Source: Eledone cirrhosa (taxonomy: Eukaryota). Taken from it: a stretch of 64,000 nucleotides of DNA. The stretch lies in contig OZ024755.1 in assembly GCA_964016885.1 (NCBI GenBank), positions 8,742,001-8,806,000 of the forward strand. The letters run 5' to 3'. Of this stretch, positions 3,588 through 59,555 are shown one piece after another. The notes beneath the pieces are model-generated. The model saw nothing but the letters and a program-made list of their open reading frames with translations. It was not told the DNA's origin and searched no databases. A program made the position numbers and the translations under genes. Each line of letters begins with the position of its first letter. Position 1 is the stretch's first letter.

Positions 3588-3795
3588 GCGCACAAACTTA
3601 CTTTAAGTATGGTAGAAAAATTGTTTCACTTCCATCAAGCATATTGCAGATATTTGATAAAAAATGTGGCAATATATCAGATGATGGCATTGAAATAGAG
3701 AAGGTCAGAGTGTCGGTAATATATTTACTATGAATTACTATATAAGGTGGATCTTTACCGCTGCCGTTAACTTCACTCAGTCAAACATTATTACA

Positions 3796-3990
3796 GGGCA
3801 GTGAATTGGTAGTATAGAGGGTAGAGGGTTGGACGCCATGCTTTCCAGCATAGTTACGTCCTTTTACGGTCTGAGTTCAAATCGAGTCGAGGTTAACTTT
3901 GCTTTTCATCCTTACGGGGTCGATAAAATAACGTACCAGTAATGCACTGGGTATTTGCTGGGTTTGTGCCAAAAGTGGGAAACAATTATT
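3796..3990 (+). mobile_element. tRNA-derived SINE (dominant family, short-3' form)
   Basis: A-box-like TGGTAGTATAG, B-box GAGTTCAAATC, core GAGGTTAACTTTGC.TTTCATCCTTACGGGGTCGATAAAATA, ATT tail. Confidence 0.85.
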
Positions 3991-4029
3991 ACATGCAAAG
4001 AGTAATAAAAGTGAAGTGATAGGTATTGG

Positions 4030-4119
<90 letters not shown>

Positions 4120-4122
<3 letters not shown>

Positions 4123-4245
4123 ATAATAATAAATTTGAAAACTAAAATCCAAAGAGGGCTCGATAAGGATAAATATATATCAAATATATAAGAACTCTAG
4201 AGCAAATATTTATTAAAATAACATTTTATTTTAATATATATGTTA

Positions 4246-4685: not shown

Positions 4686-4749
<64 letters not shown>

Positions 4750-4803
4750 TAAAATAACAGATTAAAGTTTAAGCAAAGAATCGCTGCTTTAACCCTTAAC
4801 GGG

Positions 4804-4854
4804 AGTTTCAGAAGATCCCTATAAGAGTGAAAGCAGCGATTCTTTGCTTAAACT
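4804..4854 (+). ncRNA. Second family A HHR copy, stem II partly mutated, distal stem I 5' strand missing
   Basis: AGUUU CAGAAGA UCCCUAUAAGAGU GAAA GCAG cgauucu UUGCUU AAACU; direct repeat of 5268-5318. Confidence 0.55.
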
Positions 4855-5251
4855 TTAATCTGTATTTTAATAAATATTTGCTCTACGGTTCTTATATATT
4901 TGATATATATTTATCCTTATCGAGCCCTCTTTGGATTTTAGTCTTCAAATTTATTATTTTCTTTGCGTGCTATTGTTCTCCACGCTCCACATATGACTTA
5001 TTATCTTCGTTTTTTTCGTTCATTGCCAGAGAACGTCTCTATGCACCACCTAAGAGAACATTAGTCTACGACCTCTTTTATACCATAAACGTGGTTCTGT
5101 CTTTGCGCGTAATTGTTTTTCACCGCTCCTATTAATGACGTATTATTCGTTTTTTCCCGTTCTTTGCCAGCGAACGTCACCACGAACCAAAGTATCGTCT
5201 TCCTGTCTTCCTCCAGTTGCAACGTTTTTTGAAATATCCAGTTCTGCGTTT

Positions 5252-5327
5252 ACAGATTGACTTTGTTAGTTTCAGAAGATCCCGTTAAGGGTGAAAGCAG
5301 CGATTCTTTGTTTAAACTTTAATCTGT
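5252..5327 (+). ncRNA. Extended type I hammerhead ribozyme, variant core (CAGAAGA; family A)
   Basis: Distal stem I ACAGAUUGA (5252-60)/UUAAUCUGU (5319-27), 7-nt bulge, proximal stem I AGUUU/AAACU, core CAGAAGA (U4A), stem II (U)CCC guuaa GGG(U), GAAA, stem III AGCAG/UUGYU. Predicted cut after 5313 (CUU in other copies, UUU here). Confidence 0.65.
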
Positions 5328-5329
5328 TA

Positions 5330-5397
<68 letters not shown>

Positions 5398-6204: not shown

Positions 6205-6667
6205 ATAATCTGTTTGGATAACGCTATCTGTAAAGAGCTGCTTCGAACGCGACTATGATATCTACAGTTGTCATAATTCCAGTTTTTAATGCATATTTTT
6301 ATCTTCTCAAGGCTAATATCTTTCTTGTATCCTTCAGCATTCTAGGATAGATAAAACAGCTACCCTTGTGATACGGCTTCTACATAATCTAACATTGGCT
6401 TAACCAAAAGAAATTATTATAAATCTCATACCTGAAGCCTTGCGCCTATTTTAGAAATGATGGTTTGTACAGTGAATATTATGATTACTAAATTTTCTAC
6501 GGTCTGTTGTGTCTGAACAAGACCGGAGACACTACTTTTCTGGGTATATACGCAGTATCAAGCAGCACAGTCATATGTACGAGAGCAATTTGTTTTTGGG
6601 GGTCTATTTGCTTAGGATACTTTCTGTTTTATTGGTATCAAGCCTCAAAGCTCCTGTAATTATTATT

Positions 6668-6862
6668 GTGGATTGGCAGTATCGGTCCGGGTCGGACGCC
6701 ATGCTTTGACGCATAGAGTTACGGCCCTTGCCATTCTGAGTTCAAATCCGCAGAGGTTAACTTTGCCTTCATCCTTACGGGGTCGATAAAATAAAGTACC
6801 AGTAATGCACTGGGTAATTGCTGGCCTTGTGCCAAAAGTAGAAACAATTATTATTATTATTA
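6668..6862 (+). mobile_element. tRNA-derived SINE
   Basis: Near full-length copy with (ATT)n tail. Confidence 0.9.
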
Positions 6863-7227: not shown

Positions 7228-8337
7228 TAATTCCACCTGTCACACATTATTTCTAGTAATATTTTGCATTTCAGTATGATACCTTCTTTTGTTAAACATT
7301 TTGCTTTGTTGCTTTCAGCAATCTTTTCTTCCCTTCTTCCAATAAATGTTACCATGATTCATTCATCATCGTTCAATCTTCTATCTTCTACTTATAATAT
7401 ACACATATGTGTATATTTGGGTAGCTAATGATCTCCAATTTGAAATGGAATCCGTGTGGGAAACATTGTACACATACACATGGTATATTCATTTCACTGT
7501 GTAACTATGAAATAACATTGCCTGGAACTGTTACCAATTTATGAACAGTCTTTTGGCTAGCTTTATTAGTTGGGAAGATATATAAATAAAATTGGCAAGC
7601 ATTTTAAAAAATGTGTTTTTGTTTTCCTTTCCATTGAATTGTTGTTGAACTTGTTATTGTTGTTGTATATTCTCTACCGTATTAAAATATGCATATATAT
7701 GTATTTGTATATCAATATATCAAACATAAGTTATTTTATCACGGATATACTGAAATTCTCAATAAAGGATACCTATAAATACCACTTATACATATATAAT
7801 TATATAATTATATCAATAATTATATATATATATATATATATTTGTGTGTGTGTCTGTGTGTCTGTGTGTTTGTGTGTATGTGTGTATGTGTATGTGTGTG
7901 TGTGTACGAATAATGAAACTATGGTTATATTAAGACTCAAGATTAAAGTTCAAAACTTACAAGATGATACAAAAATCGAAGATGCATCTGACCTCGCACG
8001 AATTAATTGAGAGGATCGCATTTTCTCATGCCAGCTCTTGCAACAGAAAATAAATAAACATATCTGTTGGTATGATGATGTTTGATGAGAACAACACTGA
8101 CCAAACAAAAGAGAGCGAGAACGTGTCAGTAGTTGAAAGGAAGTAATGGTGAGTAGCGTGTCAGTAACTGAAAGGAATGGTATATCTTTATGGCGGAAGG
8201 AGCAGGAATCGAAGTGACAGTAGTAGCATCAAGCGTGAGAAGGGACAAGTGAAAGTAGGAGAGGGAGAGAGAGAGAGAGAGAGAGGAAGGAAGGAAGAAA
8301 TGTTAATATATATATATATATGATTATTCTTTATAAT

Positions 8338-8522
8338 TGTCTCTACCTTAGGCACAAGGCCAGCAATTACCCAGTGCATTACTGGTACTTTATTTTATCG
8401 ACCCCGTAAGGATGAAAGGCAAAGTCAACCTCGGCGGCATTTGAACTCAGATCGTAAAGGGACGTAACTATGCTGGAAAGCATGGCGTCCGACCCTCTAC
8501 TGATACTGCCAATCCCCCGCCC
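8338..8522 (-). mobile_element. Full-length tRNA-derived SINE with 16-bp TSD
   Basis: TSD GATTATTCTTTATAAT at 8322-8337 and 8523-8538. Confidence 0.92.
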
Positions 8523-15054: not shown

Positions 15055-15064
15055 ATGTGTGTGT

Positions 15065-15298
15065 ATTAAAATTACAGATTAACGTTTAAGCAAAGAATCG
15101 CTGCTTTCACCCTTAACGAGATCTGAGTTTCAGAAGATCCTGTTAAGGGTAAAAGCAGCGATTCTTTGCTTAAACTTTTATCTTTTATTCTGTTATTTTA
15201 ATAAATATTTGCTCTATGGTTTTTATATATTTGGTATATATTTATCCTTATCGAGCCCTCTTTGGATTTTAGTCTTCACATTTATTATTATTAGTAGT
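15065..15298 (+). mobile_element. Family A copy (inverted short arm + long arm); HHR has a G12A change
   Basis: 15065-15124 is inverted. From 15126 the sequence is AGTTTCAGAAGATCCTGTTAAGGGTAAAAGCAGCGATTCTTTGCTTAAAC, followed by the family A tail. Confidence 0.8.
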
Positions 15299-21434: not shown

Positions 21435-21895
21435 TAATAATAACATCAACATCATCATCATCATCATCGATAACAACATTAGTATCATTATCATCATCAT
21501 CATGATTTCTATTTTGCGGTATCTACATAGTTTCCTGGGTGGTGAACAGCTGTGGTGGTCGTCTTTTTCAAAGTCGTAGACATGGGTAAATCAAATACCA
21601 AGAAAAGGTGACCACCTTCCCAGGAACCATTCAATGTAGACAAATGGCTCAAATGTAGAATAGCGGAAGCTAAAAATAAAACACCGCCGCCAAATTAAAA
21701 CACAAACGGCCTGATATTTTTGTTTGAGACCCCAAATTAAAAAACATATTCACGGTTGTAGACATCGGCTGCCTACTCGATGTCAATGTGGTAAAAGAAA
21801 CTACAAAAGAAGGAGTGAACCTACAGATTATTGATGAAGAGTTTGCACATCTTCTACCCAAGATACACATTCATTTTGGTAGCTATTATTATTGG

Positions 21896-22072
21896 TTGGC
21901 AGTATCGGTAGAGGGTCGGACGCCATGCTTTGAAGCATAGAGTTACCTCCCTGTATGATCTGAGTTCAAATCCCGCCGAGGTTAACTTTGCCTTTCATCC
22001 TGACGAGGTCGATAAAATAAAGTACCAGTAATGCACTGGGTAATTGCTGGCCTTGCGCCAAAAGTAGAAACA
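21896..22072 (+). mobile_element. tRNA-derived SINE with 11-bp TSD
   Basis: ATTATTATTGG at 21885-21895 and 22073-22083. Confidence 0.9.
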
Positions 22073-23963
22073 ATTATTATTGGAGTTACAGGATATATAC
22101 TAAACCGCCTGGACCAAAGTATGACTGATCAGTACCTCCTTTATCTATAACGTACCTCCTTGATCCATAAGCTCAAAAGGCCGTGACATCTTGATCCTTC
22201 GAAACTTATAAACAATTCGTACAATACAAAGGATTAAATCTTGCACAAGGGACGATGAACATTTCCTTTTCTTTACAACCTTGCCACCGGGAAATTGTTC
22301 AGTCTAAATTAAATTCAAAATTATGAGAAAGAGAAATGCATAAATACATGCACGCATACATGCATACATAGATGCATGCATACATACATACATACATACA
22401 TACATACATACATACATACATACATACATGCATACATACATATATACATATACACATACATAGATCCATACATATATAAATACATACAGACATACATACA
22501 TAAATACATACACCTTACGTCGTATATATTTTCATTCTTCGAGAATTAAAAGACGTTTGTTCTTGCTGAACTTTGATGCGATAAGTGGAGAATGAATGAA
22601 CAAGAAAGTTAACTGATACCCATAGAAGATATAGCTTTACAATAGAACTAAGCAGCTATCTTAGTGTAATCATTAATATCATTATTTCTCGCCGCGTAGA
22701 AGATTTCTCGATAATGCAGTAAGGACACGAATGAAGTTCACATTGCAATGGAGAATTAAGTAAGGTAGAATACGATAAAAATCATTTAATTTATATTTAA
22801 TTAGAAAGCAACCAAAGGTAATTATTTGAACAGTAACTAACACTCAGATCAGAGTATATTTGCATTTCTTGTGTGGATTATATCTAAATGGTTTTCTGGT
22901 GGTTTGTACGAGATACAAAAGAGATAAAGTGAAAATAAATTCATAATGGAATTTTACACAAATTTAAAGTTGTATTAAGGTTAGATATTTTGTTGTTTCT
23001 GTTATAAATTTCTTCAATATATTTGTTTGTGTGTGCGCGTGCATGTGTGTATGGGGGCGTGGAGGTGTACGTGTTTGTGTGTAGTGTGAGTACAGGTTAG
23101 TATACGTTTTTACGTCACAGCTTATGTATTGTATTTCAGCTATGTATCTGTAAAATTCAGAAGGATTGCCATATCTCTATTTATGATCACCGTTACACAT
23201 GGTATCAAGTAAGTGCCTGAGTTCCAATGATGGAGATAGCCTCTTTGTGGCTGTTTCATCTGCTAGATATAGTAGCTAATTGCCACAACATTCTAAACTA
23301 AGGATTTAGCTTTATTGGCACTCAAGTTGTAATGCAATCCAGGATACATATAGAAACAAAATACTATTTTTTAACAAAGCCACAAACCTTTTGAAGAAAA
23401 TGTATGCGATTCTTAATTCGTTTCATGCTATAAGGAAATGGCACAAACTGAGATGTTTGGCTATATGGGTTTACTATATAAGATTGTCTGTGAACACAGC
23501 ATGGCCAAATAGACAAGAGATTCGCTTCGTAATCGTTACCTTATGAGGGTAAACCCACAGCGCGTGATCTTCTACAAGTGTTATTTATAATAGCCTCGAG
23601 TCGACGCATACCTTATGATTGAATCGTAACTGAGGTAATCTATTTAGAAGCCCGTGGGACCGACAGTACACATTATCATTCTGACAGTACACATTATCAT
23701 TCTGAAGTTCCCTCACAATTACGTTAAGGTTACACATCTGTGTGATATGCCCAATCATGTACACATTATGTTCATAAATCAGGGTCTTCCGTTGATTGAA
23801 CAACTTGAAGGTTCATCATTGAAACTGACGGATATCCGTCGATATCTATTAATATTGTTCTTTGATATCAATTATATTATTAGATCTAGTAAGTATTATC
23901 AAAGTATTCAAGCGATTTATTGTTTAAAGTGCACATATATAGAGAACAAATGTTAATACAGTG

Positions 23964-25833: not shown

Positions 25834-26015
25834 GGGGCGGTGAATTGGCAGTATCGGTAGAGGGTCGAACATGCTTTACAGCATAGTTACGTCCCTTTAC
25901 GATCTAAGTTCAAATCTTGCCGAGGTTAACTTTGCCTTTCATGCTTACGGGGTCGATAAAATAAAGTACCAGTAATGTGCTGGGTAATTGCTGGCCTTGT
26001 GCCAAAACTAGAAAC
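25834..26015 (+). mobile_element. Full-length SINE with 19-bp TSD (2 mismatches)
   Basis: AATATTTATTTCTTTCGTT (25815-33) / AATATTTACTTCTATCGTT (26016-34). Confidence 0.9.
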
Positions 26016-26398
26016 AATATTTACTTCTATCGTTTACAATGTCAAACATCCGCCTTCTCTTACTCCGTTGGGACGGTGCCAGTACGAAATATTCAGAAGT
26101 TAGGGGCTCACAAACACCCACACACATGCATATATATATATATATATGTGTGTGTATGTGTATATATATATATATATATATCCAAATGTGTACACACAGT
26201 TAAGAGTATATGTATATACGCATGTAAACATACATATATGTATTCATATATAAACAGATGCATGTACGAGAGTAAACGATATAGTTGCAATAGTTGTTCA
26301 TTACATGCTGTGATTCCATAAAAGATGCAAAATAATGATAAGGAGACCAACACATAGTAATAGTTGCGTAGGCGTTCATATCTGTAAAAACCAATTTA

Positions 26399-27129: not shown

Positions 27130-27214
27130 CAAAGAGGGCTAGATAATTTCGAAAGATCCCGTTAGGGGTGACAGCAACGATTCTTTGCTTAAACTTGAAT
27201 CTGTTATTTTCATA
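27130..27214 (+). mobile_element. Family A degenerate or rearranged fragment
   Basis: CAAAGAGGGCTAGATAA (inverted tail piece) is joined to GATCCCGTTAGGGGTGACAGCAACGATTCTTTGCTTAAAC...CTGTTATTTT, then (TA)n. Confidence 0.65.
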
Positions 27215-27287
27215 TATATATATATATATATATATATTCATTCCTGTATATTGATCTGGACAATGGATATGTCTAGAGCAGTATACA

Positions 27288-46130: not shown

Positions 46131-46323
46131 GGGGCGGTGGAGTGGCAGTATCAGTAGAGGGTCGGACGCCATCCTTTGCAGCATAGAGTTATAGCCCTTG
46201 CCATTCTGAGTTCAAATCCCGCCAAGGTTAACTATGCCTTTCATCCTTACGGGGTCGATAAAATAAAGTACCAGTAATGCACTGGTAAATGCTGTCCTTG
46301 TGCCAAAAGTAGAAACAATTATT
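46131..46323 (+). mobile_element. Full-length tRNA-derived SINE
   Basis: Starts GGGGCGGTGG; has A/B boxes, core and ATT tail. Confidence 0.9.
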
Positions 46324-46857
46324 TCAATTTTTCCTTTACAAATACATACAAAATTGTATATTTCTGTTCAACAACGAATATATATGATTATATTTAAATC
46401 TGTCGAGGTAGAGCTTGGCTGCTCTATCGAGGAAGTTTGGCTGCCTTTTATTGAGGGCGAGAAAACACGTAGGAGTTTCCCTTTTATTATTGGTCGAATT
46501 TGTTATTGTTCAAATTAAACTTTCATCTTTCCAGGGATAAATACAGCGTGAGTATGTGAAACATACATTGATTTACTAGACAAAACATTCTTCTCAACAA
46601 AATATATCGCTATGTGTAACATAGAAATCAATACGGACTGATCGTAATACATATCAAGACAATAAGATTATTCGGTCTATTAACCTCCTGTTTAGAGATA
46701 AAACATTTCAAATATTTATATGTATATTACACTCTGGTTCGCTCGGTTTCACCAACGTTCATCATCGAATAAAACACTTGATGTTGATCAGAGATCAAAC
46801 CAATTGAAACGTGCAATTTTATACACACACAGATATATACACATATATAGATATATA

Positions 46858-47166
46858 TATAATATAGAAGATCAAAAGATGATTAAAAGAGTTCCAAGTA
46901 TTTTATTATGCGCATTTCAAAAACAAATATCATCATGCGATGACATTTGTGTTTTCGTCAGATAAAATAGGGAGACATGATACGAAGGTTAAAAAACACT
47001 TGTGAATAGTGCAGTTTTAAATCAACGTAATCAAAATACATGGAACTCTTTTAACCATCTTTTGATCTTATATATTATTTATACTCCAGTCCTACACACT
47101 GTAGAGTGCTACTTATCCGATATCTGCATTGCTTTATTGTACTACAATAAAACTCACACCTCCTAC
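46858..47166. mobile_element. Family F element carrying the canonical HHR
   Basis: Inverted arms about 46858-46906 and 47028-47079; ~90-bp tail to 47166; TA-rich flanks. Confidence 0.75.
46899..46969 (-). ncRNA. Type I minimal hammerhead ribozyme with canonical core (family F)
   Basis: Minus strand reads UAUUUUAU-CUGACGA-[AAACACAAAUGUCAUC gcau GAUGAUAUUUGUUUUU]-GAAA-U GCGC A-UA/-AUAAAAUA. This gives an 8-bp stem I, an intact CUGANGA/GAAA core, a ~16-bp stem II with one mismatch, a very short stem III with a palindromic GCGC loop, and an AUA cleavage triplet (cut between 46907 and 46906). It matches the minimal HHRs described in Penelope-like elements. Confidence 0.85.
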
Positions 47167-47260: not shown

Positions 47261-47264
<4 letters not shown>

Positions 47265-47514
47265 ATAATAATAAATTTGAAGACAAAAATCCAAAGAGGG
47301 CTCGATAAGGATAAATATATATCAGATATATAAGAACCGTAGAGCAAATATTTATTAAAATAACAGATTAAAGTTTAAGCAAAGAATCGCTGCTTTCACC
47401 CTTAATGAAACAGTTCTAGTCCTGTAGAAGCTCTTCTATATTAAAACTTTTATACTCTTCTATGTATTGAGTACTTTACTTACTGTGGTTACCGCCGATT
47501 GAGCCCGGAATAAG

Positions 47515-58765: not shown

Positions 58766-59128
58766 TTTGGTAGTATCGGTAGAGCGTCGGACACCATGCT
58801 TTGCAGCATAGAGTTACGCCCCTTTATGATCTGAGTTTTAATTCCGCCGAAGTTAACTTTGCCTTTCATCCTTTCGGGGTTGATAAAATAATGTACCACT
58901 GACGTACTAGGGTCGACTTGGTCGACTTTCCCCTCACCCCAGGTTGCTGGCCTTGTGCCTATACTCGAAATCATTATTATTATACGGTGGTGGATTGGCA
59001 GTATCGGTAGAGTATCGGACGCCATGCTTTCCAGCATTGAGTTACGTCCCTTTACGGACTGAGTTCAAATCCCACCGAGGTTAACTTTGCCTTTCATCCT
59101 TACGGGGTCGATAAAATAAAGTACCAGT
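58766..59128 (+). mobile_element. Tandem SINE pair (long form 58766-58983; second copy 58986-59128 truncated at 3' end)
   Basis: Two head-to-tail copies; the second ends at GTACCAGT, followed by (TA)n and the family D element. Confidence 0.85.
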
Positions 59129-59140
59129 TATATATATATA

Positions 59141-59398: not shown

Positions 59399-59478
59399 AG
59401 TAATAATAATAAATGTGAAGACTAAAATCCAAAGATAAATAAAGATAAATATATATCGAATATATAAGAACCCTATAG

Positions 59479-59483
<5 letters not shown>
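59399..59483 (-). mobile_element. Family A tail fragment
   Basis: Matches 47261-47350 with an internal deletion; flanked by TA. Confidence 0.7.

Positions 59484-59555
<72 letters not shown>

Follow-up and report, generated by a model that had tools for sequence, protein, structure and literature searches.

In the genome of Eledone cirrhosa (3.0 Gb and microsatellite-rich), a Hydra-clade Penelope-like element of approximately 18,000 copies carries in its pLTR what its sequence identifies as a type I hammerhead-type motif, with A instead of U at position 4. The copy considered here lies on the forward strand at 5252..5327 of a 64,000-nucleotide stretch of contig OZ024755.1, hereafter the window. 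The reading we favor, with a probability of roughly 0.55, is that of a maintained extended type I hammerhead fold with A4, which would cut after U17 slowly or with the help of the element protein. Because the rest of the shape is kept in old and young lineages, the motif is likely a slowed but maintained ribozyme. Since it has neither U4 nor a 10.1-11.1 pair, and since its cleavage is predicted, it is treated below as a new core variant and not as a proven ribozyme.

Layout of the motif and identity of position 4

Three helices can form around the core, with stem I open, and they are invariant between subfamilies. Stem I can pair as a distal helix of 9 bp, including one G·U (5252-5260/5319-5327), and a proximal helix of 5 bp (5268-5272/5314-5318), separated by a 7-nt bulge (5261-5267). 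The core CAGAAGA (5273-5279) is followed by U10.1 (5280), stem II (5281-5283/5289-5291) with its loop (5284-5288), U11.1 (5292), G12-A14 (5293-5295), stem III (5296-5300/5308-5312), and H17 (5313); hammerhead numbering places the predicted scissile bond at 5313/5314. C3, G5, A6, G8, A9, G12, A13, A14, A15.1-U16.1, and H17 are all present between 5273 and 5313, and these bases are the same in the majority rows of all four subfamilies. Three departures are combined in the motif: A at position 4 (5274), where hammerheads almost always have U; U·U in place of the 10.1-11.1 pair, with a 3-bp stem II; and a CUU cleavage site. The preliminary description gave this site as CUU, which most of the family has (28 of 30 unbiased loci) and which is also found in the copies at 4809 and 15131, but the copy that it cited reads UUU at 16.2-17 (5311-5313). 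UUU instead of CUU (window 5308-5313; L001-L030) marks a young sub-lineage with a G·U at 15.2-16.2, whose 40 best genome matches are 99-100% identical.

The CAGAAGA 7-mer alone is not enriched in the window (8 matches vs 5.6 expected). A full descriptor with position 4 left free (core, stem II of at least 3, stem III of at least 4, and stem I of at least 5 pairs), whose thresholds were set after the motif had been seen, matches the window solely at 5273 and matches none of 40 dinucleotide shuffles. As the preliminary description had anticipated, strict searches miss this putative natural hammerhead: a CUGANGA descriptor cannot match it, and an Rfam hammerhead is absent both from the 7 matches at E<=10 in 4760-5335 and from the 150 of 292 window matches listed. 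Elsewhere in the window, at 46900-46965 on the reverse strand, another repeat family has a canonical type I hammerhead with CUGACGA, a long loop II, and a palindromic stem III.

A4 is a fixed trait of the family, common to all four subfamilies. A 35-nt core pattern has 17,908 genome matches, and position 4 of these copies is A in 17,720 (98.95%), T in 73, and C or G in 115, which puts T4 at the level expected of mutation. The older subfamilies also have A4, in 28 of 29 non-palindromic cores; this older group of 226 matches was found via the loci of a looser U4 search, and 69 distinct sites were examined. The earlier observation of CAGAAGA at 4809, 5273, and 15131 is confirmed in the sequence, and its interpretation as a family trait rather than decay agrees with these counts. 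When contigs of four runs were compared with the motif, position 4 was unchanged among the 40 of 60 rows listed, from which nothing is concluded.

An apparent sister lineage with U4 and the same stem II (921 matches) was rejected, as 28 of 30 loci, judged by eye, are fold-back junctions in which the T is supplied by the inverted arm. Such junctions (L197-L226) yield false canonical CUGAAGA cores that lack stem I and are a trap for descriptor searches. The proposal that A4 creates a new splice acceptor was also discarded: no copy is joined at that AG, and the intron of the element ends 102 nt upstream. Because no hammerhead could be assigned in the nearest outgroup, a 52%-identical family in L032/L308, the direction of change from U to A is taken only from the 25 Hydra families listed in PMC8557442. 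In other families, C occupies position 4 of hammerhead-like motifs (L014:+2856, L161:+2727, L122 (-), and L058:+929), and the motif in L122 stands after an endonuclease fragment. Since one family shows C4 in two of its copies, the requirement at position 4 may be looser in several families.

Published hammerheads share much of this core. The layout of CNGANGA-U, a short stem II, and U-GAAA is that of Hydra hammerheads (PMC8557442). The U10.1·U11.1 mismatch, which the preliminary description had counted as a variant feature, is indeed present but is not unusual among these hammerheads: by our count from File S2 of PMC8557442, it occurs in 14 of the 25 published Hydra families (U17 in 10 of the 25), and it is described as the best-tolerated mismatch (Perreault et al. 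2011, PMC3088659). In contrast, U4 and G16.2 (GUH) occur in every one of the 25 listed families, against A4 and C16.2 in the present one; stem III here has 5-6 bp and a non-palindromic loop of 5-7 nt, compared with 3-4 bp and a 1-3-nt loop in the published Hydra motifs (PMC8557442). No natural U4A was found in the literature searched, the figures and alignments of which may hold an A4 case. A U4C variant of a viroid is slow in vitro, yet viable, and the rare natural core changes with reduced activity in the same source are single cases (PMC3088659), whereas A4 is fixed in approximately 18,000 copies across subfamilies.

The parent element and its copies in the window

The Hydra-clade assignment is based on protein motifs and element layout. 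One locus, L236 (G000:C1:18180900-18185300), holds the whole unit, consisting of the motif, the tail, a 645-aa open frame, the 3' UTR, and the motif again, with a motif-ORF-motif spacing of 3,259 nt (3,264 nt in L036). The frame encodes an RT and, C-terminally, a GIY-YIG-type endonuclease, the ends of which are also found in L001, L035, and L036. Its motifs are DKT, RWR (RWK-like, with R for K), GLYRDDG, CNCRNRVDC (CxCx5C), CDLC (CxxC), and CKH (CxH); DKT, RWK, a CxCx5C linker, and CxxC and CxH around E and N are Hydra-clade features (PMC8557442). The protein has 912 homologues at E<=0.001, the best at 57%, and a Pfam search with it gave no significant family. When compared by eye, it is unlike that of Hydra-1_Obim (PMC8557442). 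Other Hydra-like frames with 38-53% amino acid identity are nested beside the element in L032/L308 (G000:C28:31963600-31966700), L027, L034, L037, and L010. In addition, many further canonical hammerhead families flank L001-L196, often at a distance of 1.5 kb or less and in the same (TA)n tracts.

The motif lies approximately 940 nt past the stop codon, the same place relative to the stop that Hydra hammerheads occupy (PMC8557442 File S2). Like those hammerheads, it is of type I, near the 3' end, and in a pLTR, and the element shares with theirs (TA)n targets, inverted truncated copies, and a tail; unlike the published Hydra elements, it is a 3.26-kb unit with a 750-nt intron in its 3' UTR (PMC8557442). 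Two 3' ends approximately 90 nt apart were found among 30 unbiased loci, 17 of which are short and 12 long-tailed, with 1 running on into the ORF; the long 3' end is the Penelope 'tail'. The canonical CUGANGA-GAAA motif is absent between the 5' and 3' motifs of L036 and from the L035 unit. A metazoan non-LTR retrozyme, a non-coding tandem of 170-400 nt with a canonical type I hammerhead, was considered and rejected because the motif belongs to a coding element of 3.26 kb.

Hammerheads of Penelope-like elements, a context that the preliminary description had not recognized, are as a rule weak or protein-assisted, and two further groups of them offer comparisons. The minimal hammerheads of PLEs (Cervera and de la Pena 2014, PMC4209133) resemble the present motif in occupying both pLTRs, in having an extra base after A9, and in their low expected activity, and the intron of D. 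virilis Penelope likewise ends near the motif. However, they have no helix III or a tiny palindromic one and an ill-defined loop 1, which is not the case here, and the core variant reported for them is U3-A8, not A4 (PMC4209133). Their cleavage in vitro is poor (PMC4209133). In PAc, a Poseidon element of Anolis (Frangieh et al. 2024, PMC11167929), two internal RT starts give the tail and uncut RNA is the insertion template, as here, and the hammerhead has a similar position at the pLTR-ORF junction. In contrast to the present motif, the PAc hammerhead belongs to the Poseidon clade and overlaps the start codon; it cuts only with protein, and this assistance, demonstrated for PAc, would be an inferred property here (PMC11167929).

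Element copies sit within (TA)n and frequently carry an inverted truncated arm; the window insertion at 4746-5337 has this typical structure. Its main part, delimited by blastn, is a 5'-truncated copy of the element 3' UTR and pLTR (4957..5337, forward strand) that is 96% identical to the full-length copy in L236 and terminates at the short 3' end, beyond which lies (TA)n. Upstream lies a short forward copy (4804..4956) that starts G-AGTTT and contains the core at 4809, stems II and III, the proximal part of stem I only, and the long 3' tail. It forms a hairpin with an inverted 5'-truncated arm (4746..4803, reverse strand), outside of which is (TA)n, and folding of 4750-4870 gives z = -16.5. 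A MITE or DNA hairpin at 4746-4873 was rejected, since the structure there consists of an inverted truncated arm and, joined to it, the same RNA end copied in direct orientation. A second forward insertion (15064..15293) consists of an inverted arm (15064-15124) and a short copy from G-AGTTT (15126-15293), the core of which, at 15131, has decayed by replacement of G12. The extended stem I of the preliminary description is present in the 5273 copy and missing from the other two: the 4809 and 15131 copies begin at G-AGTTT behind an inverted arm, without the distal 5' strand and bulge.

The remaining window copies are partial. A decayed copy lies at 27144..27224 on the forward strand; the reverse strand has one with the 3' half of the motif and the long tail (47263..47405) and two tail-only fragments (4121..4223 and 59401-59489). 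The 3' UTR intron contains an internal 140-nt duplication with 77% identity (window 4960-5048 and 5100-5189). A different interspersed repeat of approximately 200 nt has at least 10 copies in the window, at 3787-3993, 6661-6855, 8331-8522, 21884-22081, 25834-26039, 46131-46341, 58976-59131, and other sites.

Probable constraint on the fold and traces of element RNA

Subfamilies were compared in an alignment of 140 copies with intact upstream sequence (Y1, 103; Y2, 21; S1, 8; S2, 3; 5 mixed copies omitted), and majority rows were compared only at columns that the pattern for retrieving the S copies did not include. Across all subfamilies, differences between these rows fall in 1 of 36 paired or core columns, 8 of 13 unpaired columns (bulge, N7, and loop II), and 28 of 80 upstream columns (Fisher p 2e-5 and 1e-4), where the S1 and S2 rows represent 8 and 3 decayed copies and the subfamilies are related rather than independent. 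S1 alone differs at 0 of 36, 5 of 13, and 19 of 80 columns, respectively (p of 7e-4 each). The sole free core base is N7, which is U in S2, while a sixth stem III pair of S1 is lost elsewhere via a change in loop III. Single copies differ by 5-9% from their own subfamily majority. Older subfamilies have diverged by 24-31% upstream and 22-27% in coding sequence, yet at only 0-1 of 36 paired or core columns; old S coding fragments are 73-78% identical to the young element, a divergence that includes copy decay. Such a pattern of differences is what selection on a hammerhead fold would predict. The motif also overlaps the presumed start site, which could constrain the sequence for other reasons.

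The stem I of 5 bp, a 7-nt bulge, and 9 bp had been offered as independent support for the fold; it can form, but it brings no independent support from energy, as folding of the window copy gives z = -1.14 and a minimum-energy fold other than the hammerhead. The predicted minimum is lower than the hammerhead fold by 2-7 kcal/mol in each of the four majority rows, and the probability of the 2.1:1.1 pair is at most 0.05 with A4. The covariation that the preliminary description proposed to look for did not appear: no double change was found at 22 pairs in 140 copies (0 of 3,080 cells, 81 of which hold broken pairs), nor was compensatory change seen in 8 aligned copies. Invariant pairs show constraint, not pairing. 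Two further ideas were dropped. An on/off switch by A4-U11.1 pairing reaches P = 0.39 in Y1 and Y2 but no more than 0.01 in S1 and S2, so that the switch is not conserved, and a bulge/loop III pairing that had looked compensatory has a P of at most 0.05.

The Schistosoma mansoni hammerhead has a G10.1-C11.1 pair and a 4-bp stem II. As in that extended type I motif, stem I is interrupted approximately 5-6 bp from the core here, and U1.7 and loop II's last A are available for a Hoogsteen contact (PMC6155905, PMC11875169). In Schistosoma and sTRSV hammerheads, these two bases make that contact (PMC11875169). In the present family, U1.7, drawn as a G·U in the distal helix, is invariant between subfamilies. 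A stem I with a bulge is also listed for Hydra-1_cRog (PMC8557442). Whereas S. mansoni has a canonical CUGANGA and its fast cleavage has been shown (PMC6155905, PMC11875169), the present motif has A4 and a predicted cleavage.

The ends of genomic copies preserve a record of element RNA. Approximately 10% of copies begin at the A of a TTAGTT site (5268, forward strand), often with an extra G. G precedes AGTTT in 1,451 copies, and 30 of 30 such loci are 5' junctions (three pairs being the two arms of one insertion); A or C precedes it in 1,155 copies, with junctions at 14 of 20 loci. Two unbiased samples each gave 3 of 30 starts at AGTTT, compared with 7 of 30 scattered elsewhere in the motif. 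The start site is TTAGTT, or TCAGTT in the old group, which we take to be an initiator-like word. It is likely a capped transcription start, the cap having been copied as G; alternatively, RT may have stopped strongly there and added bases. In 20 of 30 G-AGTTT copies (L087-L116; the window copies at 4804 and 15126 are also G-AGTTT starts), a T precedes the G, and several such copies are palindromes arranged back to back around a single central base, a pattern that would result if RT had added C and then A opposite a cap.

Splicing left a second trace. The 3' UTR intron is a 750-nt GT-AG intron with its donor 80 nt past the stop codon (L236) and its acceptor 102 nt upstream of C3; in the window copy, which retains the intron, the acceptor AG is at 5169..5170 on the forward strand. 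Genomic junctions comprise 228 exactly spliced (approximately 9%) and 2,353 unspliced cases, and the retrieved loci 37 unspliced, 3 spliced, and 2 with other donor sites. It follows from these junctions that RNA with the motif's polarity was transcribed, spliced, and reverse transcribed through the uncut motif. At the predicted cut, 5' ends show no clear pile-up: a base other than T precedes it in 219 of 11,692 copies, and among 30 loci of this kind 13 are junctions, including 6 snap-backs through stem I.

Readings of the A4 motif

Under the favored reading of a slowed but maintained ribozyme, transcription would begin at the A in proximal stem I, leaving the 5' copy in the RNA without distal stem I and the bulge while the 3' copy would have the complete fold. 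A start inside stem I thus would bias cutting to the 3' end. A4 would weaken the U-turn, and the contact between loop II and U1.7 may partly offset this weakening. Slow cleavage would spare intact RNA as template, and late processing of read-through or tandem transcripts could still take place. A more specific form of this reading is put forward tentatively: the motif would be a natural U4A hammerhead that is active, under selection for slowness, and dependent on position for its activity. The 5' copy would then stay off, protecting the cap and the template, and the 3' copy would cut via its loop I/loop II contact, probably once the element protein binds.

The strongest competitor, a serious one although we think it the less probable, is a catalytically dead fold: U4A would have abolished cleavage long ago, transposition would need none, and the sequence would be preserved through the start site that overlaps it and through an RNA structure on which RT binds or starts. 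The lack of a cleavage footprint in copy ends is consistent with this, as are the copies that begin inside the motif and the failure of U4 copies to expand (73 T vs 115 C and G). In a type III hammerhead subjected to deep mutagenesis, activity was low for every single and double change of CUGA except a C3/G8 swap (PMC9901934), and Naiads thrive without canonical hammerheads (PMC8557442). However, the unpaired catalytic bases G5, A6, G8, A9, and G12-A14 are fixed while the intervening N7 changes (G12-A14 lay inside the S-copy selection pattern), and the terminal A of loop II persists in 36 of 37 old copies despite variation at the four remaining loop bases; neither a promoter nor a plain hairpin predicts this pattern at N7 and loop II.

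Full activity at canonical speed, with the bulge/loop II contact or a new A4 contact compensating wholly, is improbable. Stem III, at 5-6 bp, would be competent in a monomer, stem I is extended, U1.7 and the terminal A of loop II are conserved, and none of the four subfamilies has lost A4, as though it had become necessary; for core variants, an offsetting role of tertiary contacts has been proposed (PMC3088659). Nevertheless, thousands of copies, the 228 spliced junctions among them, stem from read-through RNA, which fits poorly with fast co-transcriptional cutting of the 3' copy, and the core variants in the published sources are slower than, not equal to, canonical hammerheads. Slightly less probable still is an absence of constraint, with A4 hitch-hiking in a young family on a successful master copy; the low divergence of copies within subfamilies and the broken, uncompensated pairs would suit it, but the near-identity of paired and core columns in the diverged older subfamilies argues against it.

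U4 is treated as invariant in hammerheads, and CUGANGA descriptors and Rfam models miss this family of approximately 18,000 copies in a single genome. If the motif cleaves, the natural core consensus is wider than assumed and genomic hammerhead counts are too low. Otherwise, the family offers a clear example of a hammerhead fold preserved in the absence of catalysis, which would bear on what hammerheads do in Penelope-like elements. Should the position-dependent reading be true, a natural A4 core would be described for the first time, and the family itself would serve as a test of the role of Penelope-type hammerheads. The spliced copies and the likely cap-derived G are DNA records of the element RNA, which fix the polarity of the transcript without RNA data.
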